From: Promethearchaeota archaeon Loki_b31
GTDB lineage: Archaea > Asgardarchaeota > Lokiarchaeia > Sigyniarchaeales > SOKP01
Length of the DNA stretch: 64,000 nucleotides
NCBI GenBank assembly: GCA_005222975.1
Contig: NJBI01000008.1
Span: 19,818 to 83,817 of the forward strand
Direction: 5' to 3'
This document shows positions 29,887 to 50,608 of the stretch, one piece after another. Both the position numbers and the translations under genes were made by a program. The notes under the pieces were generated by a model that did no database searches, was not told where the DNA came from, and was given only the letters and a program-made list of their open reading frames with translations. How positions within the stretch are numbered: position 1 is the stretch's first letter; every line of letters starts with the position of its first letter.

Positions 29887-32800
29887 TTACCACCAAGTTT
29901 TATAACTCTTTGGGAACATATAATCTGTTGGAATTAGTAAAAATTCTCTTCTTCTAACCCACTGTTTGATTAGGCCGAGATCAATCTCAATCCCGCTTTC
30001 AAAACTAGCGATCTTTACTGGCATAAACATAGCCGAACCTATACCAGAGGAAAAGATTTCGTCGGGACCGTAAAATCTGTTACGATCAAACGCGCCAATC
30101 ATTTTATCGTATTCATAAATAGGTTTGCCGCCTAGATCGTCTTTAGCAATAACGAATAAGAAATCCTTTGAATAAGGACTTTTAGCTCTGGGCATAATAA
30201 CACTCATTGATAGTTTAACAATGTGTTCTAATTTATTTTGGAGGTCGCTATCTTGCAAATCGATGTCAAAACATCTAGCGTCTTTTTTATTAGTACCAGA
30301 TATTGTATGCCTTTCAGATGGAACAAGCTTTTCCCATATTTCCGTCCTCAAGAGGAACTGATAACCAACAATCTGATTTGGCCTATAAAGAGGATAAATT
30401 TTTACCTTACCATTTTTTCCCACAGCGCTTTCGATTGCTTTCTTTAAAATTTGCGCCTTTTCTTTAACTATGCCGTAATTATATCCTTGAAAATCAAAAT
30501 CTTGAAATTGATAATGGACATCCTCTCCTTTAATGAAAATCCTCCAAATTTTTATGTCTTTACCAACAAAGTCGTCCTTATTGAGCCAAATTTCAACTGG
30601 TATACCGTTAAATTCGACCTTAAAGAATTTAATTTTTTTATTATACTTATCTCCAATAATAAGATCTTCAATTTGAACTCTAAGATTGTATTTTGAGCCA
30701 TCTTGACAAAAAATACTCTCTCTATGATAGTTTAAAAGTTCTCTTTCGGCAGAGATTAGAAGCCTATTATAAAGGTCAATTTGCTCGTCTTTCTTTAAAC
30801 TTAAAGTCTGCACTTTAGTTCTTAAAACGACCTTTAAAGCATCCAGCATTTCCAGCCCAGATTCAACGAATAATTTTATTCGCCTGTGAGTAGCCAAGCC
30901 TGCGTAGTTATTATCTTTGTAATTTTTATATAGACCTTTGAACTGTGATGCAATATCCGAGTCGAAAGATTTTGAACTAGTGGAGATAAATGAATCGTCT
31001 ATAAATGAGATAGGAGAATATCCAAAACGAATAATGGCATTTTGTATATCAATCTTTCTCTCTACTGGCAAAACCATGTGCGAATCCAAAAAGAACAACG
31101 AAAATAAATGCTTATATATGTTACTATCACTAAGAATGGGGGTGGGCTTAGTTTGCGTTGAGGTTATAATTGAAAATTGTTTGAGATACTTTGAGATATC
31201 AAACTTGCTTGGCAAGTTTAAAATATCAATCTTGTAAGATTTAGGACTTCCGTAAAAATCAATCATGTGCATGAAAAGTAGCCTTAATGTGAAATGTCCG
31301 AACAATCGAGATACAACTTCAAACGCGATCTTTCCGGCTTTTATTTCTTCGGGCGAAAAAGCTTCTTTCTTATCGGCACTGATATCAAAAGGGTTTTCCG
31401 AATACTTGTTGGTAAAAGATGTTTTTGCTTCTTTTATTAGTTCGCTAACTCTATCGGTTTCCGAATCTCCTTGGTAACTCGTGACCTTCTCGAACAACAT
31501 GTGGAACCATTCCTTTATCGTGAGGTCGCCTTCTTTCATAGGTCTGATTTCGCCGCTGTATTCTTTAAGGAACAAGAAGTCTAAGATGTCGTTTTTAGTG
31601 ACAAATAGTTTGTTAATTACTCCTTCAACATCGCTTTTACTTCTTAACGATGACATATCAATTCTCCCGGTAGATGGGGTAAATCTTACATTGAACAATC
31701 CTAACTTATCGGCAATGTAAGTGTTGGCGTACGATCTTTTAGTTGAAGTGCCTTCTTCTGTTGCTAAAATGTACCTTAAGTCGATTAAGTTTAGATAAGT
31801 CTTAAAAAATGTGTCTGAAGTAATTAACTTACCCGAGACTATAGGTGTAAAAACAAGACCATCTTTGAACTTTTTCATTGACTTTCTTGTTAAAGATGGA
31901 AATAATTTCGTTATATGAGGATAAGGCTCGAGATTACCTTCAGCTCTCTGTAAAAAGGCGAGACAATGAGTTTCCGCTCCTAATAAAATTCCTGAACTTA
32001 CAGTAAAAGCAAAGTAGTAATTTGATTGGTGAGTGTTTGCATCGACTTTAATGAAGTTAGCGTACCATCCTTCAGGCCGCACGTTTATTATAATTTCGCT
32101 TCCCTCTTTGAATATGTTAACGCGGCTGTTTAAACGAACGTAGTTGGTGTCGCATAAATAAACGTTGCGAAAGACTTTTTCTTTATTCTGATCGTTTTCC
32201 ATGTGCTTATATCCCTCAGAAAACCCTTGAGGTAAAATGTTTACGATCTCTGCGGGAATAACTCCAAATGTCGGTAGAGTCTTATATTCACCGTCGACAT
32301 CATTGCTACGATGGGAGACAAGAAGCGGCTTACCTTCGCTTTTATATTGGTTGAATAATTCTTGAGTTAATAGTGTAGGAGTCAATTTACCATTTACTTT
32401 AATGAAAGTGAAAGCTTGAGGTAAATCTTCGAATCTTAAAACCGTGCCTTGCTCGTCCAGGAATAGAAGGTCTATCTGCTCGCTCAACGCTAACTTATAA
32501 TGTCCTAAGTTATCTGTATCTTCTTGTATTAGACTATCAATCTCATTCTCTAACCAAGTTAACGTATTTTCAAGATAATTAGAACCTTCGAGAAGACTAA
32601 ATCTATCCTCAGAATATACATTACTGGCGCTTTCCCTAAAAATATTATATAATTCTCCTTCAAATTGAGGATTTGCAAGCATATTCTTGATATCTTGAAC
32701 AATCTTGCTTTTATCATCAGAACTGGTAAGTATTGTATGAAATAATTGATTTAATTCTTGAATTGTTGAAAAAGTGTAAGTTAAATCACCTACCATCTTA

Positions 32801-35800
32801 TGATCTGAACCTTTTCCGTAATCAAGAAACTTGTTTGCCGCTGCCATTCTTCTCATAAGACTTATTAACGTATTATCAATATCGCCTTTTTGGGGTACAC
32901 ATCCAGCAAAAAATCTGAAATTCTTTATATCTTTCAACTGGGTGACTCCTCTTGATAATTCATAGAAGAGACTATGAATGTGAACAGAGCCAAAATCGTC
33001 TTTTAACTGATTTAGCGTACCGCTACTTATGCCATCAGGATCAGAAGTGGCTTTAATCTCTGTTGCAATATAGGTAGTTGGAGAGATAATTAACTTTATA
33101 TCGTTGAACCTAGACATAGAAGGGAATAACGAGGAAAATGGTCTTATGTCTTTACCTATGATTAGATTTTTTAAATCGTATAAATCGTTCAAATTAGAGC
33201 CCGCTAATGAATCTAAATTCTCTTGAATGTAAACATTTCCATCTAACCAACCTCCTGCTCCGAAATTAATTCCGCTTAAAAAGGCTTCAGGAGACTGGAA
33301 ACCATCTTTGATAAATTGTTCAACAACTCTTATAATAAATCCGCTAGAATAATCTATAGTTTCACCAATTCTACCAATAAATGTCTTTGGGTTTTTAGCT
33401 ATCGAAAGCCCTGGAACTCTAGTGCTATCAAAAAAGGCTTCTGTAAATTTATACCAAAATGCAGTTATGCCAACAGGTCCTAGGAACAGTCTTGCTACCT
33501 TTTTAACGGAATCTTGATTATCAAGGAATTTCTCAATCTCTTTGATTGCTGTATGAATGTCAGCAGAATCGAGATCGAGACCTAATATATCTTTAGTTAT
33601 GTATTCGATAATTGCAGACTCTCCTTGCCGAATAATAGTGTCTTTTAATTTAAACGAGCTCGTTGCGCTCAATACAGTTAATGGAATTGCGTTCTTTATC
33701 ATTTTAGATGTCTTCAACCAACTATCCCACCTCTCGTTATTCACATCTTCGTCTTGAGAAGTCTTAATAAGAGTTTCTATGTAACTATTCTGCCACAATG
33801 TATCGTGAAAACTCGATAAATACTTGTCAACAAAAGCTGTTTTGTCTAACTGACTATTTCTAACAGTATAAATGTCTTTGTTATCGGTTATTCTTAGAAG
33901 GCTTTCTCTGTTTAATTCCATAATAAAGGAGGAGAAAGCGTCCATAATTTCAATCTCTTCAAGAGTACCACACATTTCATCAAAACGAAAATCACCAGCA
34001 AATTCATGCGAATGCCTTAACCTTATTGCCCTATAAGCGTCAAATTCAGCAAATTGAGAAAGTCTCTGTATTTCATATGCGACAGACAAACCGGGCAAAC
34101 TTGATATTTGAGCAAGTAAGGTATCTTTATTAATAGTAACTTCGCCTTGCTTATCTTCGCTAAACACGTAAGGAGAAACGATTCTTGTGCCTTCCGTAAG
34201 AAACCCAAACTTGGAAGTATAAAACCTTAACTCCATTTTTGAATCTAAACCGAAATTTAGCTTAATAATATCGATTGCGTCCCACATTTTAAAAGTTTCT
34301 CCATCAAATGGAGGCAAATTAAACTCTGAAATATCTCTGTCCCAACCTTTAACATCTTTTGAAAATTTCCGCAATATATCTCCACTGAGTGATTCCATTA
34401 AAATTGAAATTTGTCCCGCAGCTTTACCCCCATAAGCAACTGCTTCAACTACCTTTGAGTTTTCTAACCGCGCCAAATCGTTTTCCTTCTGTCTTGCTGC
34501 TTCATATAGTTCTTGAGTCTGTGTTTTATATTTTAATAATCCCATTTGAGCCTCAAGATTAGCAACGCTTTGAGCGGGATCGTAAGTAATAGTTGAAGTA
34601 ATGGGACCGTAATATTTAGCGTTTACTAAGTATTCAACTGCTTGTCCAGAAGAGCTTATGCCGTAGATCGATCGAATGGTGGCGCTATCGAACAAGCTCT
34701 TAAGCTCGGCGTCTTATCCTAAACCTTTCTTAACGCCTGGTAATTTATCGATCTTAATATCCTTCGATATCATGTCTTGCCTTGCGTTGCTAATAGCCGC
34801 GCGCATCATGGTGGTCGTACCCGCTTTCGGACTCGTAATTTTTTGGCCCAAGTGTTTGATCATAGGGCTAAATCCGTACAAACTAAAACCCGCAAAACTA
34901 AGTCCTGGAACTAACAGCGAAAGCCCCGCGAAAACGCCCGAACCGATAATTCCCGCCATCTTCAATATTGTCTCGTGCCTACTTGGAACTAAATCGAGGT
35001 TAGACATTATCGACCTTATATCTTTTCTGTTCTCTCTTAGAAACTTTTCCAAGGTAAACGATTGGTCGCTATCTCGTTCCGCGATAAGTTGTGATAGTTC
35101 GGTAGTTAAAGCGCTGTGTTGTAATTCTTGCTCTATCTGTGTCATTATATCAACGTCAAAAGATATGCCCCCTTGCGTGTCGGTGCCTAGACCTCCTAGA
35201 TTGAACGCGCCGAACATTTTAGTTTCCCGAACCGTGGTCATAAGCGTAGAAATTAGCTGTCCTACTCCTTCAGACCAGCCCAACATACGAGCCGAGTTTT
35301 CGAAGTAGGCCTCGATGAAACCGTCTACTACGATTTCTTCGAACACTTCCCCTATAGTCTGAGCAACGATTTTAACGCTCATAGAAGCCATTTGAACCGC
35401 AACTTTAGTCAATAACGACGACCCTATTTGAGCGCTCGCCTCAATAGCCCCTTGAGCTAAAATCTTTTGAATAGAAACGGCGGCTCCAGCAAGCGCAACA
35501 ATAGGCGCTGAACGCGAAGTAGATTGGAAAGTTAAAATCTCGGTGTAAGCGATCTCCCCGATTATTTTAGCCGTAGTCGCCGCAAAAACGTATTGATCGA
35601 AATAATCTAAGATAGGATACATCGTAGCTTGAGCTAAGAGAGTTCTTTGGTTCTCTTCCGAAAGATTGCCGTCGTCAGGTATTATCTTAGCAAATTTAAC
35701 CTGACACACGTAATAATATTCCGTCCCTTCGTCGTAGTTGGAGGCTGAATCGCCCATAAGCTCGTCTATTGGGCGCGCAAAATAAAGGTTTTGCAATTTT

Positions 35801-38800
35801 TCGGGAATCTCGTAATCAGAAGCGTCTAAAGTTTTAGAAGTTACCTCTTTATTTACTACCTTGTGTAGAATTACGCTTTCGATTGGGTAATTAAACGCCC
35901 CATACAAGTCAGCTAACGGTATTTTTGCGGAATAAAACTCTTTCTCCTCGTCTAAAAGGTCGGTCGAATCGATACCTTTCGTGTTTGACGCCCCAAAAGA
36001 GGCGATGTCCACGAAGAGATAACCAAATTTTCTGGACTCGCTAAGTTGGTCGTATCTTTGGGAACTTATTATCAACGGACTGAAAAGCGAAGATAAAGGC
36101 GCTGTATCGTCTTCTTGAGCGAATAGATATTGAGGAGTTGCGTCCGAACAGATCGGTTTTATAGAATTGAGAGAACCTCCAGTTTTTTCGTTAATTTCGT
36201 GCTGTAAGTAGCCGAGGGTGTTTTGTCTTAACTTGTAAGAATTGTAGTTCTGAATGATTCTTAGAACCATTTGAGGACCCGTTTTATAATATTTCATCGG
36301 TGCGGAAAAGAAAGTGGGCTCGTAGACCTCGTAAATAGGTTCTAATTCTAACATTTTATCGACTAAATCTGGGTCTTCGAAGTAGGTGTAGTGTTTTTGG
36401 TCGTTGTACGAATAAAGCTCGCTCGAGACCATTAAAAAGTCTAAATTGTGGTAATCGAAGTCTAGTCCAGCCATTATATCGGGATTTACATCTTGCGGTA
36501 AGGTGTTTGTCCACTTTAGATCGATATTAGACCAGATAAAATCTAAAAAGCCCGTGTTAGAGCCTCTCCAACAACGAGCGTCGCTTGGAGGGGCGGCAAC
36601 AACGTAGGCGAGGTATTCGTTTCCGGTTTGACCGCCTCGAACTTCAGCGTAATAAGTTCCGGGGTGACCACTTAACGCAGCAGGCATGCTATCGCTCCAA
36701 ATGTCGTCCGTAGGATATTTTTTATTGAGAATTCTTGGTTGATTGTTATTGGCGTCTTCTGAGTAAAAAGTTTGCGAGCGCAACTTTGCTTCTGCCTCGC
36801 GGGCTTTCACGTCGTTAGTAATTAAACTTAGCGAAGTATATATAGCAAAATACACGGGCAATGCCACCAGATCAGTAAAGATTCTCGCTAAAGCCGCAGC
36901 CACTCCCGCAATTATAGAAATAGTAACTTGCTCGGTTAAATCGCGTTCGTATCGTTCGCCAAATATCTTCCAAACTTTATTGAATTCTTTATGGCGGGTC
37001 TCGTAGAAAAGCTCGGAAAATCTGGCGTTTTGAGCACTTGTTGTGATTAACTTTCTTATTTCAAATACGTTGTCTTTGAGCTCGTATCCGTCGCGCTCGT
37101 CTTCTGGGAACAAACGGTCGCTCCTTCCTAATTTTGCAAACTCAAATATATTTCCTTCCGTTTGATGGAACTCGTGAGATAATACGTCTCTAAATTCGTT
37201 TAAATTTTCTATAGGCCAACCAGTTTCGGTTCTAGAATACGGAATAAAATCGTGTTTACCGTCGTAATTAAATCCAATAGCCATAACTTCGTAGTAAGCA
37301 TCGTCTCCCTCGCCCTTTACTGGAGAAAGCACGTAAACCGTTTCCCAAAATCCGTTTTCATCGCTATCGTAATAGAGATAATGACCGTTGGTTTTGGCTG
37401 CCTTCCCACCGTTGCGCTTGAAAGATTCCTTATCGGAAGTATAGTAAACTTTGCCATCAGCGGGGGTAATAAAAACGCCTGTTATTTTCAATTTCATGTC
37501 GGAAGTGCTCGAGGTCTTTAACGAGACAACTTTCTTATAGTCGTCGTAAGGGTTAATTCTACTAGGAATAACTATGTTTATTTCTCGCTCGAACAGATTA
37601 ATATTTTCGCTAGAAGAAGTTTCCGAATTTACTATAGTTAAAGACTCAAACTTACTTGGAACGTTAGAACCGTCGTCCCATTTGTCGTATTCTTCGGTTT
37701 GAACTGCGGGGATAAAATCAAGTGGAACGTCTTGCTGTTGCCCCGTTTCGAGACTAGTTATGGTTTGGCTAAGGTCGATTCCTAAGTCGATCGTCTCGTC
37801 TTCAAACAAATCCTTATACACTCTGATTTCTATTAGCGTGCCGTTATCCCAGTGATTTACGGTAATTTGTTCGCTTATTTGATTATCAACGTAAAGTTTT
37901 GTAGTTATTATCGAATATTTCTTGTAAGTTTGAGTTAGAGTTTCTCGAATATCCGAGGCGAGCCAGTGGTAACTACTTGGATAAGATCCGCTTTCGATCA
38001 TTTCAGGAGTGAGCTTCTCGTTAAAAATAGGATCAACCCTTCCTCCTGAAATTAAAGACCCTATCCACTCAGCCATGCTAGCGTATATGTAAGTAATCGC
38101 GTTCTGAGGTTTTGCCGCTAAAATAGTGGTTTCGCTGTTTGTAACGCGTGTATATTGAACGGTATCTGTTTTTTCGTATGTATATTGAATATCGGCGGCT
38201 CCATCGTAATCTTCGTCTACCATAACAGAATAAAACGAACTTTGAATGGAATAATCGGTAGAATAAGTTTGCTCGACGCTTTTTCTGGCCCAATAATCTA
38301 TATCTGTAAAGATAATCGTAGATAACGAAGTTGAGGTAGCAAACTGGGCATCGTCTACATCAAACCATTTAGTAGTCTCTCTTGGTCTTGATTTTAAGTT
38401 GTAGAGAGATTCGCTTCCTAAAAAGTCGTTTATGACCGTGTGCCAAACGATCTCGTTAGAATCTACGTCAGATTCAACACCAAATCTTATAACATCGATT
38501 TTACCGTTCTTATCTACGTCAATCACATGTTTAAAGTCTCTTTTACCGTCCATATCTGAATCAGCTTCGTATATAACGTTATAAGGGTCTAAATAAAGCT
38601 CAAAATTGTCAAATAAAGCAGAAGAAATGTATCCCTTAAGGGTTTTATTAGAGCTTAGTTCAGAATTTCGGGTGTAATCAATTGAAGTAAACGAAGTACT
38701 ATCAGAAGCTATTGTCTCAGCGCGCTCTACAAATAAATAATCGCCCGCATTTACCGAATATTCGAAAGAACCCGACAAGTAATCGTAAAACGAATTTTCT

Positions 38801-39315
38801 AAGTCGGCTAAATTACTCTGGTTGAAAGAGTCCGATAAATACAATTTAGTTTTTGTCGACACAGGTCCGTGTGTAAAGTTTAAAACGACCGTAATAGCGT
38901 CAAATTCGTTTAATAAACCATCAGTTGAGATTAAGTCTGTTATAGTAATTGTTTTAGCAGAAATATCAAAATTCACGCTATAATTGGTGTTATCGTCGTC
39001 GATAAATTTTTCTGAAAAGTTAGCGTAAAGTCCAACGATTCTAAACAACGAGAGATTTAAGAAGTCTTTATCGAAATCGTATTCGAGTTCAAAAGAGTAA
39101 ATATATTCGTCGGTCTCGGTATAAACAACGAAGTTTTCGGAGTAGAATTGCTCGATCTCGTAGTCATAGTTGCTATTTTCTATTAATTCTCCGTACCATT
39201 CTTCGAACCTAGGAGTTAACAAGTAATCGTAATTATATATTAATTCGAAAGATTCAAAGTTTGCGTTCTCGTATTTTAAATCGATTCCTCTGGGTAGCCT
39301 TCGTATCGAAAGATT
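29887..39315 (-). pseudogene. Giant (~3,100-codon) gene broken by one in-frame TAA at 34716-34714 and lacking an ATG start; probable mobile-element giant protein
   Basis: ORFs 34714..39222 and 29887..34695 share a frame, reading ...KKGLG*DAELKSLFDSAT...; the frame stays open upstream to 39315; both ORF-track starts are TTG. Confidence 0.75.
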
Positions 39316-39497
39316 TCAATTAGTTTTTCTTCTACAATCTTTTTTTTCCTTTCTTGGATTTGTTCTGTATCGCCTTCTTTTAAAATGTTTCGGATAGAAG
39401 GATACGAGATTCCTTCTAATCTTGCTATGTCTTTTTTGCTTACTCCCTTATTATATAGTTCTAATATTTTCGCTTTTTTTTCTTCGGAAATTGTCAT
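39276..39497 (-). CDS. Small HTH DNA-binding protein (Hin/resolvase-type HTH), possibly truncated
   Basis: KILELYNKGVSKKDIARLEGISYPSIRNIL HTH; its 3' end overlaps the open frame of the giant gene. Confidence 0.75.
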   Translation of the reverse strand: MTISEEKKAKILELYNKGVSKKDIARLEGISYPSIRNILKEGDTEQIQERKKKIVEEKLIEIFRYEGYPEESI

Positions 39498-40021
39498 GAA
39501 ATTTTATTCCTCATTTTTAGTGAAAATTTTAGCTTATTTTTCTGAATAATTATTGAATAATTTCTGAGAACGGTATTGGTATTTTTCATTTTTTTCAGTT
39601 AAAAATTTTTTTGAAATTTTTTTTGAAACTTAATTTTTTAAACTTATTTTTTGGCGTTTAGGAGCTTGTTTAATATTTACATTTTCATGCTTTTAAATTT
39701 TTAGTAATAATATTCACAATAATACTTACTATTAATACTAAAATAGATTTTTCAGAAAATTGCGAAATCGCTATAATTCGGTTTTTTGTTTTGGTTTTTG
39801 TCGATAAAAATCACGGTATTACCGATTTGTAAATTCAATTCCGATAAAAATATTGGTTTTGTTGGCTTGGTATTATTTATACTTGTAAGAGCTTTTTCCA
39901 ATTCTCTATTTCCAATTTTAAAATTTGGAAGTTGGAAGTAGGAAGTAAGAAAAAGGCACATTTAAAAGGTAGTAATCTAAATAACACATAATTAAAAATT
40001 AAATATCTGGATGTGTGAATT

Positions 40022-40282
40022 ATGGCAAAAAAATTGAAATGTTCCCCTGACGAAATGCTTTCTTGGATGAAAATAGCCAGAGAATCGGAGAAACTTCAAC
40101 CCGACGCAAGCAAGGTGACGCTTGTTCAAGTAAAAGAAGCCGTTAAAACGGTTTTTGATGAAGGTAAAGGTTGTTTTCCGAAACCAAAAGGCAGGGCTAT
40201 TGGCGAAAGGGCTAAGGAGTTAGGAGCTTACAAGAAAACCATAGAAAAACGCTTAGGAATAAAAATAAAGGATTTGTATTAA
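40022..40282 (+). CDS. Small basic hypothetical protein
   Basis: 86-aa ATG ORF, first of three co-oriented small genes. Confidence 0.7.
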   Translation: MAKKLKCSPDEMLSWMKIARESEKLQPDASKVTLVQVKEAVKTVFDEGKGCFPKPKGRAIGERAKELGAYKKTIEKRLGIKIKDLY

Positions 40283-40326
40283 AATATAAATTAATTCTAA
40301 ATAATTTTTTTTTACAAATATAATAG

Positions 40327-40665
40327 GTGATAAAAATAACTGAAGTAAAAAAACCAGAATCGTGTAAACCCCTATACATACTGCAAAACTTGGGGAGCAT
40401 AAAAAAGGATGCTAACAAGTTAGATTTTATTGCAGACACATTAAAAAGGTGTGCTGTTGCTCCCGCAAAAAAGCCCCGACAAATGAGTGGTTACAACTGT
40501 TTTGTGAAAATACAAATAAAGAAAACGGGAAAACCGTTAAAAGAAGTCGTGAAAGCGAGAACTTGGAGTACGCTTGAGCCAAAACAGAAAAAAATTTGGA
40601 AATCTCTCGCTCTTGAAGGGTGTCCGCCACGATTGTGGGAAACAGAAGCTTTAAAATTAAAATAA
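40327..40665 (+). CDS. HMG-box-like protein
   Basis: KKPRQMSGYNCFVK...WSTLEPKQKKIWKSLA resembles the HMG consensus PKRPxSAYxLF...WxxLsxxxKxxY/W. Confidence 0.6.
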   Translation: MIKITEVKKPESCKPLYILQNLGSIKKDANKLDFIADTLKRCAVAPAKKPRQMSGYNCFVKIQIKKTGKPLKEVVKARTWSTLEPKQKKIWKSLALEGCPPRLWETEALKLK

Positions 40666-40805
40666 TGAGCAATATAGAGAAACTTGAGGATGTTAGTTTA
40701 AGCGAAATGGTTCGAGAAATCAAAAAATACTTTATAGAGCGTGGTTTCGAGTACAAAGGCAAAACTAACGAGGGAATTTCTATTTTTAAAAAAACAGATA
40801 AATAA
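40665..40805 (+). CDS. Small hypothetical protein (MSNIEKLEDV...)
   Basis: ATG overlaps the previous stop (TAATG), suggesting translational coupling. Confidence 0.55.
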   Translation: MSNIEKLEDVSLSEMVREIKKYFIERGFEYKGKTNEGISIFKKTDK

Positions 40806-40907
40806 AAAAGCTCCGATAAAAATCCTTTTTTTGATGTAATATTTATAATATTTATTTGAGTGTAAAATATCAAAAAAGAAATAATGTATCCAAAAAACGC
40901 CTAAAAA

Positions 40908-41060
40908 TTAGGTTTTTTGATTAGAGTTAATCTTTAATTTCTCATATTTTAAAACAAGAATTTGGATGGTGTCCGAAAGCGATTTGCTTCCGAATTTCTC
41001 TTTATAACGCAATAAAATATCTCGAACTTTTATGTCCACTTTTATAGTTGTAGAAGTCAT
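40908..41060 (-). CDS. Ribbon-helix-helix / antitoxin-like small DNA-binding protein
   Basis: MTSTTIKVDIKVRDILLRYKEKFGSKSLSDTIQIL matches the archaeal RHH pattern TTIxV...LxxxK...SxSDxI. Confidence 0.7.
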   Translation of the reverse strand: MTSTTIKVDIKVRDILLRYKEKFGSKSLSDTIQILVLKYEKLKINSNQKT

Positions 41061-41194
41061 AATAATATAAAATATAAAACCAAGCGAAATATTTAAATTG
41101 TCGGAGAATATATTAACAATATACTGAGAGCATATTAAATATTTCAATCACTTTGAGAAAACAGAAAAAAAATAAATTTTAAAAGGTTAAAAAA

Positions 41195-41747
41195 TTGGCA
41201 AAAGAGAAAAGCGAATTTATAATATCATTAGAAAAAAAGCTTAAGGAACATTGGGAAGATACAAAAGAAGAGCGAGGGAAAACACATACTGCTAAGATTC
41301 ATCAGAAATTAAATAAAAAAGCGTAGAAATATGGCGTCCTTTTCGCTCGGGGGGACTTTGGGTAATTGCCGAGAGTAAGCGAGCTTGTAAACCCGCCATA
41401 CTACAAAAACGATTTCGAAAAATTTAAATTGGGGAAGGATTAAAACGATACATTCAAGAATGATTGCCATCTGATGTATGTGTCAACCTAATCCTTTCCC
41501 ACCTTTTATTTTAAATTACAAATAAGGAGTGTGATAAAAAGAAAAGATGCCTAAGATGACAAAAACTCTTGAGTTTTGGAAAGGGGAAAGAATAGCTATA
41601 CCGACAAGTAAAATATATAAATGTCAAAGATGTGAATATAAAACCAAATGTGGTGAAATTTATCTTTTAAATCATTATGCTCAGCCTTTCATTCCGAGAA
41701 GGGAGACTCTAATAGATTTTTGTCTTTTAAACTTTGATTCAATCTAA
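41195..41747 (+). pseudogene. Fragmented Exo5/Cas4-like Fe-S exonuclease remnant
   Basis: N fragment ERGK...IHQKL (41195-41326); C fragment FWKGER.AIP...KCQRCEYKTKC (41547-41747). Confidence 0.5.
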
Positions 41748-41859
41748 CCCTCTCATTTGCTCCCTTCTCAATTTACTTTTACAAAAACACGATGGAATCA
41801 ATAGGGCTTCCCGATTGACCGTAAACACTAAAATTTAAAACAAAAAATGGCAAAAAACT

Positions 41860-42507
41860 ATGAGAGTTATGAGAGAAAACATAAAAATTGTTTTAATTGG
41901 AATATTAGTTTTTACTGGGGGATTGGCGTTAGGAAGTTTTGTGATGATTGGTATAAAAACGCAAGAACTACAAGATGTTCAGAACGACGCAGATTATTGG
42001 GAAAATCGATACAACAACCTTTTAGGCGATTACAACGATTTATTGGATGATTACAACATTTTGTTTGGCGATTACCAATCGATATTAAGCGTATTGGAAG
42101 ACCCTCTAACAAACCCAGTATTACCGACTAATAGCGAGCTTTATTATTGGTTAGAAGACGACAATACGGACACACATAAATATACTGAAAATTGGCGAAG
42201 TGGAGATTTTTCCGCAATGCTTATGGTTAGAGCTAAAGAAATGAACTGGCGAATGAGAATATCTTGTATGTTTTGGAGCTATGACGGTGATGTCGGTTGG
42301 CAAGACCCTGCCGAGCCTTACGGTTCATACGGACACGCTTTTAATGTAATATTGTGTCAAGATTGCGATGGCGATGGTAATGAAGATTGGTTATATGTCG
42401 AACCACAAACCGATAGAGTGTGGTATGTAATTATTGGAGCTGAATCTTTTGTTCATTACGACATTTGGCTAACTTTTACTGGCGGAATAACGGGGACTGT
42501 GTGTTAA
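41860..42507 (+). CDS. Membrane-anchored coiled-coil plus transglutaminase/papain-like domain protein
   Basis: N-terminal TM, heptad YxxLxxD repeats, SGDFS...GHAFNV...YVEPQTD. Confidence 0.65.
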   Translation: MRVMRENIKIVLIGILVFTGGLALGSFVMIGIKTQELQDVQNDADYWENRYNNLLGDYNDLLDDYNILFGDYQSILSVLEDPLTNPVLPTNSELYYWLEDDNTDTHKYTENWRSGDFSAMLMVRAKEMNWRMRISCMFWSYDGDVGWQDPAEPYGSYGHAFNVILCQDCDGDGNEDWLYVEPQTDRVWYVIIGAESFVHYDIWLTFTGGITGTVC

Positions 42508-42662
42508 GGAAACAATGGAAATAATGAAAAATATTGATAATATTATAGATATTGATAATATTATAGATCAATATGGTGGATGGCCGATAGAATAATGAAT
42601 AAAAAAAATTAATATTAAAAAAAAAAAAAAGCGAGATAAAAATAAAGAAGCTTAAAGATTCT

Positions 42663-43172
42663 GTGGAAATCAATGTTCCGCCAGAGAGAGTATGGAAAAG
42701 TGATAAATTAGATCAAGAAACAAAGGAATTGATGAGAAAAAAAGTTGAGGAACATTTTTCAAAGGAAGAACAAGTATTAGACTTTATCTTAAATCTTGAT
42801 CCAGATAGTCTAACTTTGGATTCTACAATTCTAAAATTAGAAGCATTAAGAACACAAGGTCAAAAAATTAAAGATAAGTAATATAAACGGAAATTAGGCA
42901 TTGCTCAGTATCTTGAGAAGATAGTTTTGCGGAAAATCGCTTATATGTGTTTAAAATATAAGATTCATCGAGCCATTTTTGAATTGAGTAACGGAATGGA
43001 TAAAATTTTAGAATTGTTAGAGAGATTACCTTTTTTTAACACTTACTATCTTTTGCATAAAGGATTGGACGATATTCCAGACCACCCCATCAATTCTCAT
43101 GATTTACAAGACAGCTATAGCTTTTGTTTTGCACTTCCATACTGTGATTATGTTGCTGGTGAGATGCCTTAA
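42663..43172 (+). pseudogene. Fragments of a decayed gene with PIN-like C-terminal motif
   Basis: Two short ORFs with non-ATG starts; HDLQDSYSFCFALPYCDYVAGE resembles the PIN-like D-x-x-D...ALPYCD motif. Confidence 0.4.
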
Positions 43173-43483
43173 AAAACAAAGAAAAGCTAATAAAAATCGT
43201 TAAGAACGTATTAGATTAAGTAATTACTACCTTAGTACTACTTTAGAAGGGTCTAAATTACAAGTCAAGTAGAGCTTTTTTATTTTCATTTATCTTTTTT
43301 ATTTTCATTTATCTATGGATTGCAGCTCTATTTTTTACTATAAAATATAAAAAAATTAAATATTCCAAGAAAGAAAAACTAATTACTATAGAGTCTGACG
43401 AAAACTCCGAGAAAGATGACCTTGGAGATAATTTTATAATTAACAAAGAGTTAGAATCTAAAATTAATAATATCCTTGAGAAA

Positions 43484-44233
43484 ATGAAATCTAACTTTAG
43501 ATTATTTCAACTGCTTAATTTTATTCTAATTATTCCTGTTCCGCTTTTAGTAATGAATTTAATACTGTCAATGGTAACTTTGTATCAATTATTAGTATTA
43601 AATTATGTATTTACGAATCTTATAGCGTTTATTTCATATCAATCAGTATTGTTATTTCTAAATTTATTCGTCTTCTTTATTGAAGGATTAAGGATAATTG
43701 ATTTCTTAATCATTTATAGAATTAATCAAAACTTAGAAAACGTATTTAGTAAAAGGATAGATAGATATTTGGACCAATTTAAGGAATATAGTAGTACAAA
43801 TATTAAGGAACTTTATGTAGATAAGGAAAAATTATTATTCTCGCTAAACAATTGGAATGAACTCTATCTAGGAACTTTTTTTAATTCAGCCGAATCTAAT
43901 CTAAAGATTTCTGATTTTAGGGATTTATTATTTATTGAAGATAATGAGCAATATTATGCGTATATATTCTCGAATCTAAAACATCGACTTCTTGATTATC
44001 TTAGTTATAACGTAATTGAAGGTAAAATCAATGAAAACAAGGAGAACTTGACTAATGTATTACTAATAATTGAAAACATCATTAATAAACTAGATTATAA
44101 CATCAAACTTACTAATCAAATTCTAAAAAATAAACATGAAAGAAAAAAAATGATTACAACATGGCTAAGAATTATTAATAGCCCAATCTCAATATTTTTT
44201 ACCTTATTTTATTTCTTTTCAGGAATCGTATAA
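43484..44233 (+). CDS. Hypothetical membrane protein (2 N-terminal TM plus C-terminal TM)
   Basis: 249-aa AT-rich ORF abutting the CRISPR trailer end. Confidence 0.6.
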   Translation: MKSNFRLFQLLNFILIIPVPLLVMNLILSMVTLYQLLVLNYVFTNLIAFISYQSVLLFLNLFVFFIEGLRIIDFLIIYRINQNLENVFSKRIDRYLDQFKEYSSTNIKELYVDKEKLLFSLNNWNELYLGTFFNSAESNLKISDFRDLLFIEDNEQYYAYIFSNLKHRLLDYLSYNVIEGKINENKENLTNVLLIIENIINKLDYNIKLTNQILKNKHERKKMITTWLRIINSPISIFFTLFYFFSGIV

Positions 44234-44276
44234 TCACTTTATAATCCAATAAAATTCATTGACCTTAGATAGTTGG

Positions 44277-45176
44277 TTTTAAAACCTTGTTTTATTGGAT
44301 ATTTTATTACTACATAAGGAGTTATACCCAAACACATATAGAAAATTTTTTCCATTTCAATCCTTGTTTTGTTGGATATTTTATTGTTACTAATATACAC
44401 TTCAAAACTTTGGATGCAAGAGAGTTAATTTCAATCCTTATTTTGTTGGATATTTTATTGTTACGAAGGAGAAACATACTGGGACGATTTGTGGGAAAAA
44501 TAATTTCAATCCTTATTTTGTTGGATATTTTATTGTTACGATACGGTATGGACTTATTTGTGTGAGAAATATAATATTTCAATCCTTATTTTGTTGGATA
44601 TTTTATTGTTACCATTGATGATTTATACATTCCTTATTTTGTTGGATATTTTATTGTTACCCCAGTCTGCCGTAGCTTTTAGTGCGACCACTTTTATATT
44701 TCAATCCTTATTTTGTTGGATATTTTATTGTTACTTATGATTGGACCGAGCAGAAAGGGATTAGTTTCAGATTTCAATCCTTATTTTGTTGGATATTTTA
44801 TTGTTACATCTCTTCCACTACATGTCATACATGAATCTCTTTTATTTCAATCCTTATTTTGTTGGATATTTTATTGTTACTACTGAGGGTATTACGATTT
44901 GGAACCAAGTTTGGACTATTTCAATCCTTATTTTGTTGGATATTTTATTGTTACAGGTAATGTTAATAAGGATGTTTTACCAAAGATATTTTATTTCAAT
45001 CCTTATTTTGTTGGATATTTTATTGTTACTTAATAACCCGGAAATATGAATCAAAACATCAACTCATTTCAATCCTTATTTTGTTGGATATTTTATTGTT
45101 ACAAAAAATGAGAGAAAGAACATTTAAAAATAGTCCAAAATTTCAATCCTTATTTTGTTGGATATTTTATTGTTAC
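44277..45176 (-). CRISPR. CRISPR array 1: 13 repeats (1 degenerate terminal, 1 truncated), 12 spacers; repeat GTAACAATAAAATATCCAACAAAATAAGGATTGAAAT
   Basis: 37-nt repeats with ~36-40-nt spacers; ATTGAAAT 3' end on the minus strand; leader on the right. Confidence 0.97.
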
Positions 45177-45710
45177 CCTTAATTTTTTAATAATATAATA
45201 CGCTAAGGCACTATTTAAATTTTGTTGAGGAGCAATTATTAATTCGTTGAAGGCGCCTTATTTCTATTCTTTTGATTTTTGAGCTAGCTCTAAGGATTCT
45301 ATACGATTTTTTCTCGAGCTGAGGTCTATCGTTCGAGAATTCTTTTTCGTATCTTCTGGCGCGTGAGTTGTTGTAAACAAAAAGATTTCGAACATTAAAA
45401 ATTTCTCGTTTGATATTTAAAGAAGCTCGGCGAAATTTGGTTCAAGGAAAACGCTCGCAAGCTCTTTTTCGTCTCAATATTAGCTAGTTGTTTTTATAAT
45501 AGTTTGCTTAAATTAAAGAATTTTAGAATTCATACGACCATAGCCTAACTTTGCTTTCGGGCTTTTTTATCGAGAAACACTCGATCAAGTGGACTTCTCC
45601 TTAACAAAAAGCTCTCATTGAGGCGTTGAATTAAATTAAATGGTTAGCTTGTACAAAATCGTAAAAAAAAATACTTCGATCCTCGAAATGGTTTAAATAC
45701 TTTAAATATA
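45177..45710 (-). promoter_or_regulatory. Leader of CRISPR array 1 (inverted copy of 56198-56730)
   Basis: Adjoins the first repeat; its reverse complement aligns along its whole length with the array 2 leader. Confidence 0.88.
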
Positions 45711-45860
45711 TTTATTTCTTAGTTTGGACTCCAAAAAAATTTGACTTTTCAAGAGAAATCTCGCTTTTATTTACTACGAGATATTTTTATAAATAATTTA
45801 AATTATTAGTGTTATTAAAAATCCAATAATTAATTTTATAAAGACAAATTTGGATATATT

Positions 45861-47421
45861 GGCATTAATGCTTTTTAGGTCATGGGAAAATAAAAACTTT
45901 TACCCGTAAGCGTTGAGAACGGTTTGAACTGAAATTCGCTTGCCTTCAGGGATTCTATACCTATTTTTTTCTTTTTACTATTTTTTATTAAATAACTATA
46001 CAAAGGGCGTCCCGCAAGATTTGTGAATGGGATATATCCATATTCCACAAGGAAGGCGTGAAGCGTGTATAATTTATGACCATATTCCTTATCTCTCTGC
46101 TTTCTCCCAGCTCCATTCCTCTTAACTTGCGAATATTTGCTTTCTATCTTGTTGGTGGTGATGTGTTTTCCCTTAAAAATTGTGAATATTGGAGTGAGCA
46201 GTTGAATCATCCACTTTTTAGCGCCCGCCCGCATGGATAACTTATTGGTCTCGAAATTTACGAAAATTTTGGCAGTCCCTTCTTTCTAAAACGAATCGGA
46301 TTGGTACTTCTCCAATTTTTGCCGCCATCGTTCGTTCTTATTTTGCGATGTATCTGATTTTCGAGGTCTGCCTCGTTTTGCTTGAACTTTTCCTTTAATA
46401 AACTTGATCTCCCAGTTAAACTTTAACTCGTGCTTATTGCGATAAAATGCTTTCCAGTGCGTATAGATCTTATAATGTAAAAAGTGAGGACCAAGCTTTT
46501 TATACTTGCTGATAATCACCTCTCCACGTTGCTTTTGGGCATGTAATTGAGCAACTTGAATTACTTTACTACCGAAAATTTTCGCGATTGCTTTATAGGA
46601 GGGCTCTCCATCGGTGATAAGGACTGTAAGTTTTTCTCTACACGCTTCAGGGATTTTATGGAACGCTTCAAGAATTAATTTCTTGAGATCGCCCTCATCT
46701 GCGAGTCCGATGGAAAGTGTTTCATAATCATTGTTGATAAATACAATTTCTGTATCAGAATTGCCTCAAGAGCCCATATAGATCTCATCCCCTAATATAA
46801 CACCTCGCGGAAGTGCTTTTAATTTCTGCTCAATTACATCCAAATTTTGTTGAAATACTTGCGAAACAAACGATTTTTTAAATTTACTTAACTTATCTTG
46901 AGGAATTCCCCATTGTTTTGCTATTCCAGTGAGCGGATATTTTAAAACAAACAGATCGTAAAGGATCATTTTAATTTTTTGTTGATAAAGTAATAAATTC
47001 CTCATTTCAATGTCCTTTCCAAACCGTTTCTCGCATTTTGAACACCTAATCCTATGAACGCTCCTATCTTCTAAAGTATTAAATCCGTTATATGTGAGTG
47101 TGCCCAAGTGAGCACATATGTTTTGTGAATCTGATTTTGAATTCCGCTTCTTAGGACCAGAAAAAAATTTTTTCCGTATCTTTTTATCTATGTCGTGATA
47201 ATTCATCATTTTCTTCTGCCAATTTTTTTTCTCTATTTAATATTGGGGAGCCCTTTTATTTTAATGTTTTCCTTGGAGCTGATGCTTTATACAACACAAA
47301 GATTGATAGATAACTGGACAAAAAAATAAGAGATCCAAAGATTTAAATGATATCAAACTAAATTTTCACAAAATAAGAAAATAAAAAAAAATTTTGGCAT
47401 GACCTAAAAGGCATTAATGCT
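45861..47421 (-). mobile_element. Decayed IS element (DDE transposase, IS1595-like) with 24-bp TIRs and 8-bp TSD GATATATT
   Basis: Left end GGCATTAATGCTTTTTAGGTCATG; right end rc AGCATTAATGCCTTTTAGGTCATG; GATATATT at 45853-45860 and 47422-47429; transposase fragments with Zn-ribbon, GDEIY, ITDG..SY and TNKIES...KR. Confidence 0.88.
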
Positions 47422-47474: not shown

Positions 47475-50105
47475 ATGAAAGACAAATTTCAATTAGTCTT
47501 TGGAGCTTTATTGCACGATATTGGCAAGTTAGGGTATCGAGCGGGCGAGAGGGGGAGTCACGAAGAGATTGGCGCGAGAGTGACTCAAGAATACGACGAT
47601 GTGCTCCCTAAAGTTAACAGCTTAATTTCTTTACACCATCAACGGGATAACGGAAATGTTTTTGAGGGCGAAGGGTATAACCTCTTAAAAAAAGTTATTA
47701 TTGCCGACTGGTTAGCGTCAGCAGAAAGGATAGAGGTCGAGGAAAGAAAAGAAGTGAGAAAAGTTGGACTGAGCCCTGTATTTTCTAAAATTAATCTTTT
47801 TAACAAAGAAATTAGTCGTCATAAATTTGTTTACTTAGGAAAAGAACTCGAGCTAAAAAACGGCTCTAAAGAGATATTCCCTTTAATAGAAAATGAAGCT
47901 TCAAGTTTATTAGAGCGTTATTTTTTAGGTAACTGGAATTTGTTCAAGAAAAAATTTCAAAGGGTAGGGGAATATAAAGACGATTTCGAGGCTTTATTTG
48001 ACTTTTTGTATTCTCTTGTTAAAACGCATTTTAAATTCGTACCTTCTGCTGCTTATTTTGTCGAACCAGACGTTAGTCTTTTCGATCACTCAAAAATGGT
48101 CTGTGCGATCGCTCTTGCCATTCATAACTATTTTAAAGCGAAGTCAGTTGAAGAAAAAGAAGAAATAGCCGCTTTAAATAATTTAGGTAAATTACTGCAA
48201 GGTCTATATAGAGAGGGCGATCTATACAAAAAGGAAATAGAGAAGGATAATAAGCTAAGAGAGGTATTTAAGAACGTTAAGTTTTTTGCCTTAATTCACG
48301 GCGATTTTTCCGGAATTCAGAAGTTTATCCATTTAATCAGTTCTAAGTCTGCTATGAAGACCTTAAAAGGAAGGTCCTTCTTTTTTACTCTGTTAACAGA
48401 GAATTTTGCGAGTTTTATCGTACAGCAATTAGACCTAACGGAAGCTAACATTATATTTGCGGGAGGAGGTCATTTCTATATAATTAGTCATTGTTTTGAC
48501 GAGCTGGAATCTAAAATAAGAGAGTTTAGTATCAAGATAAACGCTTTATTTATCGAGGAACTCAATTCCAGATTGTTTCTTGCTTTGGATTTCGTTCCCT
48601 TATCTGTTGAAAGTTTGAGAAACGGGATTTCTGAAATCTGGGACTCGGCAACTAGAAAAACCTCGAATAAAAAGTTAAAGAAATTTAACGATATAATTAG
48701 TACTTCTGGTACTAACTATTTTTCGAAAATATTCGGTCCTGTTCACGATTCTGCGTTGAAAACAGAAAGATGCGTCGTTTGTAATTCGTATTCGGATTTA
48801 GAACCTATCGAAAGAGGTGGCGAGGACCAATGGTGTTCTCAGTGCAGAAGCTTTAAGGAGTTAACTGATAAATTAAAAAGTAGCAAATTTTATCGCATTA
48901 CGCAAGATAGTCAAGAGAGTTATAACGATGTTTTAAAGGAATTTAACAACGCTGTGGAGTTTGCCGACCTTAATACCGCGTCAAAAAAAGATTTAAAAAC
49001 TTGGTGTTCGATAAATAACCCCTCCTTTGAAAAAACTATTGGCGACAAACTGTTACCTATCGGATTTCCACTTAACGAAAATGACTCTATTATCGACAAC
49101 GACCAATTAGGCGAGAAATCTAAAGAAAGGACAGGATTTAACAAAATCGCCGTATTAAAAATGGACGTCGATTCGTTAGGAAAAATTTTTCAAAGAGGCT
49201 TGCGAAAAAATTACAGTCTTTCTCGAGTATCTACTCTGAGTACTTCTTTATCGTTATTTTTTAGGGGATACGTTTCAAAACTAGTAGAGACGAGCTATCC
49301 CAATTCTATCTATTTGATCTTTTCGGGAGGAGACGATCTTTTTGCTATGGGTGCCTGGGATAAAGTTATTGAATTTGCGTTTGAATTGTATCGAGCGTTT
49401 AGAAAGTTCACAGCTTACAATCCCGACATTACTTTAAGTGCTGGTATAGTTTTAGAAAGTCCTAAGTTTCGTATTATTCACGCTTCAATGGTAGCGGAGG
49501 AACAGTTGGATAACGCTAAGTATAGCGAACCTTATTCGAGCGAATTTAACACTAAAAATAAAATAACCCTATTTGGTTCGGTTTTAAAATGGGATTGGAC
49601 CTTAGAAAAAGAACTAAAACATCTTCAATTGACCAAAGATTCTAAAGATATTAAAACGCTTCGCAGAGAGCAAATTATCGAGGTCTTTGAGACAAAAGAC
49701 GACGCCAAAATCAACGCGTTCCTTATCGATTGGCTTAACGACAAATCAGAATTCGAACTCTCATTAATTTTAAAAGACGTTCTGACCTATCTGCTCGTAA
49801 AAAAGGATTTTTCTAAATCAATGCTCCACAAATTAGAAACTTCTATAATAGGAGTAAGAAAATTACTTGAAGATTCCTTAAAAAGAAAAGTTAACGTTCC
49901 AAAGTTATGGCGATTAAAATATTATTTGAGAAAGGTTTTAGGCTCAAAAGACCGCGAAGTGAGGTTGTTGAGCCAATTTATTGTTTACGCTTTTGAAATA
50001 ATAATTAAAAACAATTTGTTTAAGACCGATCCAAATTTACAAATTAAAAACGTTGAATTCATAACTGTCGCAATAAAGTGGGCAGATTACTTAACCAGAA
50101 AATAA
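47475..50105 (+). CDS. cas10: Type III-A Cas10/Csm1 (HD nuclease plus palm cyclase)
   Basis: LLHDIGK HD motif, DFSGIQKFI, LKGRSF, CxxC/CxxC Zn finger, KMDVDSLG, SGGDDLF. Confidence 0.97.
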   Translation: MKDKFQLVFGALLHDIGKLGYRAGERGSHEEIGARVTQEYDDVLPKVNSLISLHHQRDNGNVFEGEGYNLLKKVIIADWLASAERIEVEERKEVRKVGLSPVFSKINLFNKEISRHKFVYLGKELELKNGSKEIFPLIENEASSLLERYFLGNWNLFKKKFQRVGEYKDDFEALFDFLYSLVKTHFKFVPSAAYFVEPDVSLFDHSKMVCAIALAIHNYFKAKSVEEKEEIAALNNLGKLLQGLYREGDLYKKEIEKDNKLREVFKNVKFFALIHGDFSGIQKFIHLISSKSAMKTLKGRSFFFTLLTENFASFIVQQLDLTEANIIFAGGGHFYIISHCFDELESKIREFSIKINALFIEELNSRLFLALDFVPLSVESLRNGISEIWDSATRKTSNKKLKKFNDIISTSGTNYFSKIFGPVHDSALKTERCVVCNSYSDLEPIERGGEDQWCSQCRSFKELTDKLKSSKFYRITQDSQESYNDVLKEFNNAVEFADLNTASKKDLKTWCSINNPSFEKTIGDKLLPIGFPLNENDSIIDNDQLGEKSKERTGFNKIAVLKMDVDSLGKIFQRGLRKNYSLSRVSTLSTSLSLFFRGYVSKLVETSYPNSIYLIFSGGDDLFAMGAWDKVIEFAFELYRAFRKFTAYNPDITLSAGIVLESPKFRIIHASMVAEEQLDNAKYSEPYSSEFNTKNKITLFGSVLKWDWTLEKELKHLQLTKDSKDIKTLRREQIIEVFETKDDAKINAFLIDWLNDKSEFELSLILKDVLTYLLVKKDFSKSMLHKLETSIIGVRKLLEDSLKRKVNVPKLWRLKYYLRKVLGSKDREVRLLSQFIVYAFEIIIKNNLFKTDPNLQIKNVEFITVAIKWADYLTRK

Positions 50106-50607: not shown

Positions 50608-50608
50608 A

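Follow-up and report, generated by a model that had tools for sequence, protein, structure and literature searches.

In the chromatin of eukaryotes and in mitochondrial nucleoids, HMG boxes serve as central architectural proteins. Prokaryotes have other DNA benders that mobile elements use, IHF/HU and the archaeal Sul7d, Cren7, MC1 and Alba, which are small, basic and abundant and serve compaction, recombination and transcription. Here we describe an HMG-box-like protein of 112 amino acids encoded in a stretch of 64,000 nucleotides of contig NJBI01000008.1 from the Promethearchaeota archaeon Loki_b31 (the whole stretch is called the window). We predict that it is probably a small two-module DNA-binding protein, an architectural HMG-box protein encoded by a mobile element. 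The job proposed for it is the same as that of the benders named above, whose folds are unrelated and none of which is an HMG box.

In the available part of a 2026 ECOD domain census (PMC13539645), the HMG box is confined to Eukaryota among 44 proteomes. The closest described archaeal systems are the 7H_42-like Asgard mobile genetic elements, which we compare by description only. The accessible parts of 'Viruses of Asgard archaea' by Medvedeva et al. (bioRxiv 10.1101/2021.07.29.453957) mention HMG-domain proteins of these elements in one clause, as chromatin-associated proteins, and a figure legend there names both Trx and HMG among their genes; the elements also have a primase-helicase, nucleases and an integrase. 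This clause and figure label come without sequence features, structure or distribution of the HMG proteins. A 2026 Asgard virome paper does not mention HMG. The first-pass annotation of the window had suggested an unreported protein, which is too strong: HMG-domain proteins on Asgard elements are already in print as a passing annotation. We found no earlier description of the family anatomy, its spread or a chromosomal copy in the literature searched. The one-clause mention in the preprint reduces the surprise and not the usefulness of the family.

The loci described below resemble the 7H_42-like elements in having Prim-Pol (in metagenome locus L005, the closest DNA relative of the window gene), HNH/endonuclease VII and Trx-like genes (in L011 and L012). 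One locus name shares a dataset prefix with a contig named in the available text of the preprint. The contigs 7H_42, Ga0114923_10000127 and Ga0209976_10000148 of Medvedeva et al. are not among the 12 metagenome loci that we recovered with the family gene. The window copy is chromosomal and lies in a decayed fragment, whereas the 7H_42-like HMG genes are on elements.

Sequence and predicted fold of the HMG-box-like protein

The two strings that first drew attention to the gene, PAKKPRQMSGYNCFVKIQ and KARTWSTLEPKQKKIWKSLA, are both present in the 112-amino-acid open reading frame (ORF) at exactly 40327-40665 (+), and the motif noticed there is the conserved core of a family. In 52 family sequences C42 and A95 never vary, and conservation reaches 90% or more at K50, R51, G55, Y56, N57, C58, W80 and C99.

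The ORF is a real, intact gene under purifying selection, more than a chance ORF. In a word-indexed search of 5.8 billion proteins, 11 of 13 candidates match the window protein at E ≤ 0.01 (55-85% identity). A phmmer search of 1.84 billion cluster representatives gave 22 matches at E ≤ 1e-3, and 48 of 985 candidates match in a family profile search. The homologues have no precomputed Pfam domain, and their only informative source names are a Lokiarchaeia metagenome-assembled genome (MAG) and a marine-sediment metagenome. The ratio of non-synonymous to synonymous substitution rates (dN/dS) for the window gene is 0.21 against L005 (dS 0.76); five other usable pairs give 0.06-0.23, with 0.08 against L006, and one more pair is saturated. 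In-frame stops (TAA and TAG) stand immediately 5' of the GTG start, which is supported because L005 has an ATG at that exact position in a pairwise DNA alignment. The first 21 residues are conserved across the family, though some gene callers drop them.

By sequence comparison, the window protein is a divergent HMG-box homologue that falls outside the current Pfam HMG_box and HMG_box_2 models. Profiles of 28 sequences (A2), of 52 full-length sequences (A3) and of 13 box-only sequences cut from the loci (A4) were searched against 177,635 PDB sequences. A2 returned 24 rows at E ≤ 10, the first 21 being HMG-box proteins (best E 0.0015), and A3 returned 35 rows at E ≤ 1 with HMG-box proteins in the top 29 (best TFAM, 3.3e-5). 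With A4 all 33 rows at E ≤ 1 are HMG-box proteins, led by TFAM (1.5e-7 and 34.7 bits with the complete chain, 5.7e-6 when only box B is scored) and including HMGB3 (2.9e-5) and HMGB1 (5.5e-5). In hhalign, A4 aligns with the multi-box protein P0030 (probability 97.1%, E 5.2e-11) and with residues 235-292 of a 351-amino-acid metagenomic protein from locus L016 (96.1%, 3.1e-9), residues 240-304 of which score 46 bits on Pfam HMG_box (cut-off 25.4). The aromatic core positions align residue for residue with HMGB3, TFAM and the L016 protein, and the window protein retains Y56, F59, W80 and W91. Of the canonical pattern KKPR-x-S-x-Y-x-x-F ... W ... W/Y ... A, the positions K50, R51, Y56, W80 and A95 line up with their equivalents in these three proteins.

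Single family members touch the same Pfam models. Among 28 members scanned one at a time, 14 touch YABBY, 13 HMG_box_2 and six HMG_box; among 52 (E ≤ 0.1), HMG_box_2 is matched by 21, YABBY by 20 and HMG_box by four, and any other family by at most one. The best HMG_box_2 E-value among the members, 1.9e-4, is close to what the cut-off corresponds to.

Starting from the window protein, phmmer leads directly to just three canonical HMG-box proteins, P0025, P0028 and P0030 (E 7e-6 to 7e-5 in 1.84 billion proteins). They are tandem arrays of two to three short boxes, all above Pfam cut-offs (HMG_box_2 35.4 and 27.9 bits, cut-off 22.4; P0030 38.8 bits on HMG_box), and share a GYN-F/W-L/W-KAK pattern with the window protein. 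Unlike it, they have no cysteines and no N-terminal hairpin. They look like Nucleocytoviricota-like clusters (Atlas 0.92, an unchecked lead only).

Box B of TFAM, the human mitochondrial transcription factor A (PDB 3fgh, 6erp, 3tq6), is the best sequence match. It shares with the window family a short connection between helices 1 and 2 and the Asn after the core Tyr (GYNCF in the window protein, AYNVY in TFAM), which is also found in YABBY. At L72, where helix 2 begins, the family has a conserved hydrophobic residue; its TFAM counterpart in the alignment is a Leu that we take to be the intercalating Leu182. In Foldseek, TFAM superposes on the box model with TM 0.58/0.54 and a root mean square deviation (rmsd) of 3.2 Å over 55 residues. 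TFAM differs in having two boxes, a linker helix, a C-terminal tail and a longer helix 3, and in being eukaryotic and nuclear-encoded; it lacks the N-terminal Cys hairpin and the conserved cysteines, both present in the window family. The HMGB1/2/3 A box (PDB 2rtu, 2ly4, 2eqz) is the best structural match (Z 5.9 with the full-length model and Z 5.6 with the box-only model), with profile E-values of 2.9e-5 to 5e-4 (A4), and has a KKPR-type basic arm and the aromatic core in common with the window protein. The canonical box is longer (about 75 amino acids), as are its helices 1 and 3. Cysteines also occur in the HMGB A box, as a pair at positions other than those of the window protein.

YABBY proteins have a Cys-bearing N-terminal region (a C2C2 zinc finger with C-x2-C pairs) and an HMG-like C-terminal domain. 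The plant-specific YABBY family (PF04690) shares the motif SAYN-F with the window protein, in which the cysteines are at 13, 42, 58 and 99 and form no C-x2-C pair. We rejected membership in YABBY, as the match of 16.2 bits is far below the cut-off of 28.6 and only helix 1 (23 residues) aligns.

Residues 44-99 are predicted to adopt an L-shaped three-helix HMG fold with an extended N-terminal arm. The AlphaFold2 (AF2) full-length model, made from a 28-row alignment, has a predicted local distance difference test score (pLDDT) of 84.2, and its box comprises helix 1 (55-67), a kinked helix 2 (71-82; 71-76/79-82) and helix 3 (85-96), followed by a weak helix at 102-111. Searched with VIA against 48,161 chains, the first match of the full-length model is the oxidised HMGB1 A box (Z 5.9, rmsd 1.7 Å over 47 amino acids, model residues 52-98), and the HMG boxes of Sox, UBF, LEF1, HMG-D, TFAM and Abf2 come next (Z 3.6-4.4). 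For the box-only model (pLDDT 81.0) just 91 of these chains attain Z ≥ 2, and HMG boxes fill every one of the top 28 rows (Z 5.6-3.0). The Foldseek search of the PDB gave HMG boxes in all of the first 20 listed rows for the full model and the first 34 for the box model (TM 0.47-0.61). Top rows in BFVD are giant-virus HMG boxes, Marseillevirus among them. The argument from the fold rests on this clean ranking and its agreement with the sequence statistics, because the Z-scores are modest. The original identification of an HMG box is thus borne out by profile matches to the PDB, by hhalign on Pfam-defined boxes and by the predicted fold ranking.

The box departs from canonical ones in length. 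The first-pass annotation had described a shortened helix 2; two residues are indeed gone there in an alignment with HMGB3, and the main shortening is a gap of seven residues at the end of helix 1 and in the following loop. In several family members an insertion of 10-11 residues behind helix 1 brings the box back to canonical length. Helix 3 ends at residue 96 and is followed by G-C-P-P.

The N-terminal module is predicted with pLDDT 89-93, and its structural matches are generic helical ones only. The spacing of 29 residues between C13 and C42 is constant in the long forms of the family; in forms with a short N-terminus the first Cys lies 10-11 residues before C42 instead. The conserved quartet is completed by C58 in helix 1 and C99 just past helix 3, and canonical boxes lack these four cysteines.

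DNA bending is the function we consider most likely for this element-encoded protein. It would attach to the DNA minor groove, showing little preference for particular sequences, and introduce a bend. Bending could compact the element genome, or aid the assembly of integrase, replication or transcription complexes. The chromatin role put forward in the first-pass annotation may also apply to the window protein. The gene survives in the window inside an element fragment fused at 39285/6 to a 5'-truncated giant chromosomal gene.

Several observations weigh against this interpretation. The window protein alone matches only YABBY in Pfam (E 0.014, residues 44-66) and has no HMG_box (PF00505) or HMG_box_2 (PF09011) match at E ≤ 10, so that the Pfam signal expected for an HMG box appears at the level of the family and not in the single protein. 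A phmmer search with the single protein against the PDB sequences gave no match at E ≤ 10. In Foldseek the top rows are all HMG boxes, yet neither the full-length nor the box-only model has a match at E ≤ 1e-3, the values being 0.4 or worse. No VIA Z-score reaches 6, and scores of this size can, according to the tool's own warning, be common among helical proteins. Because helix 3 has only about 12 residues, the L has a shortened long arm, and DNA may be bent with a geometry other than the canonical one. The Cys quartet and the N-terminal hairpin are alien to HMG boxes and may point to metal or redox chemistry beyond a plain DNA bender. The window copy has a 6-bp deletion that removes the GGAG preceding the ATG in L005; given this loss, its GTG start and the fragmentary state of the element, it may be poorly expressed or idle. 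DNA binding and bending by the window protein are properties that we infer.

The absence of any match above a curated Pfam threshold and the Foldseek values could be taken to mean that a lysine-rich helical peptide resembles an HMG box by convergence or composition, without homology, since small three-helix domains are readily matched by chance. We regard this as very improbable and largely refuted. The rows found with A4 contain no other lysine-rich helical protein, the hhalign matches fall precisely on the Pfam-defined box with the aromatic core aligned, and the structure ranking parts HMG boxes cleanly from all else. Both a predicted HMG-box fold and profile matches were found, and a divergent HMG box encoded by an element is the reading that we keep.

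Family members and their element loci

The family comprises about 50-60 unannotated clusters from sediment metagenomes, which current Pfam models miss, a gap that matters for annotation of the Asgard virome. The gene is present in two of 161 genomes of the class and two of 400 of the phylum, and it is single-copy in the genome of the window. The second genome belongs to the same family as that of the window and to another genus; it and L004, the one contig found in a scan of named genomes and titled Promethearchaeia MAG, are counted as one genome, as their hits agree in contig number and coordinates. A search for PF00505 in the 400 Asgard genomes gave no match and is uninformative, as 14 control genomes also gave none. 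Scans of IMG/VR viral contigs with A1, A3 and P0030 found no relative. A sequencing-run search with the window gene listed no RNA run, and the DNA runs listed share at most 0.15 of its words. No longer fused form was found at E ≤ 1e-3 among 8,000 candidates scored, which is weak evidence only.

Neighbours of the family gene were scanned with Pfam (146 proteins) and PHROGs (88 proteins), and they include integrase, Prim-Pol, baseplate-like and HNH/endonuclease VII genes. L005 encodes an integrase, a DnaJ protein, a 737-amino-acid Prim-Pol protein and a 315-amino-acid helix-turn-helix (HTH) protein. In L004, an integrase, a winged helix protein, many small ORFs, the HMG-like gene and a 1,456-amino-acid beta-helix protein are followed by a host-type FGGY kinase; att repeats and tRNA genes were looked for around this element, and none was found. 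The order HMG-like gene, small ORFs, a protein of about 220 amino acids and a beta-helix giant is common to L007 and L008. L011, taken from a 64-kb contig, has a baseplate-connector match (phrog_677, 1.5e-10), GIY-YIG, a glycosyltransferase and a NikA-like protein, and L012, taken from a 60-kb contig, an endonuclease VII/HNH gene. The family is an accessory gene of Lokiarchaeia/Promethearchaeia mobile elements, both integrase-bearing elements and virus-like contigs with tail genes.

Right-handed beta-helix giants (NosD/Beta_helix) lie, in conserved order, a few genes 3' of the HMG-like gene in L004 (11391-15761), L007 (1587-4940) and L008 (11722-12776); they may be adhesin- or fibre-like element proteins. 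On L016, a metagenome contig of 4.9 kb that may stem from a eukaryote, a giant virus or an Asgard archaeon, the 351-amino-acid HMG_box protein stands beside a protein with a ubiquitin-conjugating E2 domain (216-1271, 2266-3321).

The family has long, short, six-Cys and box-only forms, and paralogues often number two to three per element. Extra copies occur in L008, L009, L011, L014 and L015 (E 1e-9 to 6e-25 against A3) and, by alignment, in L012. The box-only paralogues of L008 (7808-7981) and L009 (855-1025) have 56-57 amino acids and four Cys, and to our knowledge would be among the smallest HMG boxes. The family lets one ask how a minimal box (56-112 amino acids) bends DNA.

The conserved cysteines suggest a second possibility, in which the protein is a DNA condenser stapled by disulfides or metal, with the Cys essential, acting with an element-encoded thioredoxin-fold partner and, for example, packaged with the DNA. 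C42, C58 and C99 are kept in 50 of the 52 members, and Cys counts are mostly even (four in 35 members and six in eight); the six-Cys forms add one pair, with one extra Cys in helix 1 and one in helix 2, and the box-only paralogues again have four. A glutaredoxin/thioredoxin-like ORF stands directly 5' of the HMG-like gene in L011 (9729-9980) and L012 (2487-2771) and nearby in L014 (542-829). These ORFs are mutually homologous, with scores at or just under the cut-off (22-24 bits), and hint at a redox link to the conserved cysteines; the joint listing of Trx and HMG for 7H_42-like elements in the figure legend of the preprint points the same way. On the other side, the window locus, L004, L005, L007 and L008 have no thioredoxin-fold neighbour, five Cys occur in six members and seven in one, and the N-terminal spacing of 10-11 versus 29 residues is hard to fit to a single geometry. 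Stable disulfides are unexpected in the cytoplasm of anaerobic sediment archaea. We hold a Cys-dependent condenser to be unlikely. The two remaining members have three Cys, in truncated gene calls. A Zn(Cys)4 site joining hairpin and box was also considered and is neither supported nor rejected. A homodimer prediction with zinc gave a median score of 0.27 against a mark of 0.42, which bears neither for nor against dimerisation.

This well-supported and diversified family provides sequences with which to ask whether the HMG fold existed around the time of the archaeal ancestor of eukaryotes, or whether Asgard elements and giant viruses passed it between them. We may speculate that it represents an old and diversified HMG-box lineage in the Lokiarchaeia-type mobilome, that eukaryotic and giant-virus HMG chromatin proteins descend from such virus or plasmid benders of Asgard archaea rather than the reverse, and that the Cys-stapled hairpin form is a prokaryotic precursor, although we think this scenario improbable.

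The window locus, its junction and its host

The features of the locus are collected below.

Features of the window around the HMG-box-like gene and elsewhere on the stretch (positions are those of the window; for L005, those of that contig)
Feature	Position	Strand	Remarks
HMG-box-like gene, 112 amino acids	40327..40665	+	GTG start, stop included; ORF list, homologues, dN/dS
N-terminal module, residues 10-43	40354..40455	+	Two-helix hairpin (15-24, 28-42) between conserved C13 and C42; AF2
Basic arm (AKKPRQ) and three-helix HMG box, residues 44-99	40456..40623	+	Profile against PDB, hhalign, structure ranking
Upstream gene of the same transcription unit, 86 amino acids	40022..40282	+	86% amino acid identity to L005 8447-8707, same order
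Downstream ORF, 46 amino acids	40665..40805	+	ATG overlaps stop of HMG gene (TAATG, 40663-40667); not conserved in L005
AT-rich stretch of 46 nt 5' of the 86-amino-acid gene	39960..40005	+	TATA-like TTTAAAA and TTAAAAATTAAATA
Run of 7 T after the third ORF	40826..40832	+	Sequence read directly; candidate archaeal terminator
Divergent HTH_23 gene, 73-amino-acid stub	39276..39497	-	Pfam HTH_23 29.9 bits; 524 bp 5' of the 86-amino-acid gene
79-amino-acid ORF	40908..41147	-	Last part common to L005 (73% amino acid identity over 48 amino acids); no family match
66-amino-acid ORF	41547..41747	+	Pfam Exo5 25.1 bits, profile positions 331-364 of 367
Junction of chromosome-type and element-type DNA	39285..39286		G127 homology ends 39286, L005 homology starts 39285
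Giant ORF, 1,502 amino acids, adjoining the HTH stub	34714-39222	-	3' part of a much larger gene
Snf7	10745-11371		ESCRT cluster (10745-14462)
Vps4 with MIT and Vps4_C	11599-12816		ESCRT cluster
ESCRT-II	12829-13740		ESCRT cluster
EAP30/Vps36-like	13746-14462		ESCRT cluster
CRISPR array 1	44277-45176		13 copies of 37-nt repeat
CRISPR array 2	56731-58103		19 copies of 37-nt repeat
Type III-A operon	47475-56074		Between the arrays; Cas10 with HD, Csm2-5, 488-amino-acid protein without assignment, Cas6b

The HMG-like gene had been placed in a three-gene operon divergent from an HTH/giant gene. The first two genes are conserved with L005 and the third differs. The HMG-like protein and its operon partners have no PHROG, PADLOC or NCBIfam match, and the 86-amino-acid protein has no Pfam match either. 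The 46-nt stretch is 100% identical to L005 in the pairwise DNA alignment, as against 87% in coding DNA, and from its sequence is a candidate promoter or operator; the T run may be the terminator of the unit.

This arrangement raises the possibility that the HMG-like protein is a sequence-specific transcription regulator of the SOX/MATA/LEF type, acting on the divergent promoter region of the element. The module looks regulatory, with the divergent HTH gene, the fully conserved stretch and a ribbon-helix-helix-like ORF downstream, and the structural matches include boxes of Sox, LEF1, capicua and SRY (Z 3.9-4.7). The best sequence matches, however, are to non-specific architectural boxes (TFAM box B, HMGB1/2/3 and UBF), the two to three paralogues per element with their box-only forms fit abundant structural proteins better, and the family gene has different neighbours in other loci. 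We consider a regulator unlikely, and an architectural protein remains our preferred reading.

The first-pass annotation placed the gene in a mobile-element remnant, and comparison with other genomes agrees. DNA homology to L005 runs over 39285-40649 (87%), is broken at 40649-40782 and resumes at 40782-41121 (74%). The HTH stub is 97% identical in amino acids to the N-terminus of the 315-amino-acid protein of L005 (6979-7926), which is thus cut to 73 amino acids in the window, and L005 is a contig with integrase and Prim-Pol. The 40-44 kb part of the window, with the HMG-like gene, has no DNA match in any of 41 other genomes of the genus. When window positions 27000-46999 were searched against these genomes, only 27000-28386 was found in nearly all.

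A leucine-rich-repeat (LRR) gene and the two giant ORFs of the window recur, in the same order, in a single congener (G127). There (L023, G127:C23:26000-41600), the frame of the giant ORF extends a further 5,200 codons or more upstream, which would give a gene of more than 6,700 codons. The upstream part of this gene is absent from the assembly of the window's genome at the DNA level. The rest of L005, from integrase to HTH, is missing from the assembly as well, and no integrase is present in the window between 29.9 and 47 kb. Because of the junction and these missing parts, we conclude from the sequence that the window holds a fragment of an L005-like integrase/primase element joined at 39285/6 to a giant chromosomal gene truncated at its 5' end. 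Downstream in the window, the 66-amino-acid ORF appears to be a gene fragment of an Exo5-type (Cas4-like) nuclease, since only the C-terminal Cys motif of these nucleases is matched.

The archaeal context bears on a further explanation, namely that eukaryotic or giant-virus DNA was mis-binned or mis-assembled into an archaeal genome. The nearest canonical relatives by sequence features look like Nucleocytoviricota proteins (Atlas 0.86 for the window protein and 0.92 for P0030, as leads only), and the BFVD rows are viral. Against this, the gene is in the middle of its contig, where an Asgard cluster of genes for endosomal sorting complexes required for transport (ESCRT) precedes it by 26 kb and a type III-A CRISPR-Cas locus follows 4 kb downstream; G+C around the gene is 0.32, as in the surrounding contig; in a second, independent Asgard genome a homologue has an integrase on one side and a host-type sugar kinase on the other; and the gene density and overlapping start and stop codons are prokaryotic. 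We judge such an error extremely improbable. With its genes at 10.7-14.5 kb of the contig, the ESCRT cluster represents the eukaryotic-signature set customary in Asgard archaea and bears out the Asgard host named in the first-pass annotation.

The two CRISPR arrays are inverted, and their leaders, each about 540 bp long, share 77% identity. Comparison of the 29 spacers with every locus and the remainder of the window yielded nothing beyond chance: matches reach 14 nt at most, apart from one of 16 nt that includes a mismatch. The arrays also account for several artefactual entries in the ORF list, at 44.3-45.2 and 57.4-57.9 kb. The region 45850-46999, between the leader of the first array and cas10, contains ORFs at 45875-46234 and 46766-47209 that have no family match. 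Several congeners have this region too (82-89%), in many cases at the end of a contig, and it seems to be a conserved portion of the CRISPR-cas locus at which assemblies break.

The second giant ORF lies at 29887-34695 (-), and neither giant ORF has a Pfam, PHROG, PADLOC or NCBIfam match. G+C is 0.41 over 34-38 kb, as against values of about 0.30-0.35 in most of the remaining window. The window also encodes two 420-amino-acid LRR proteins (20592-21857 and 28606-29868); their DNA has many partial matches across the genus, and they therefore appear to belong to a multi-copy family.

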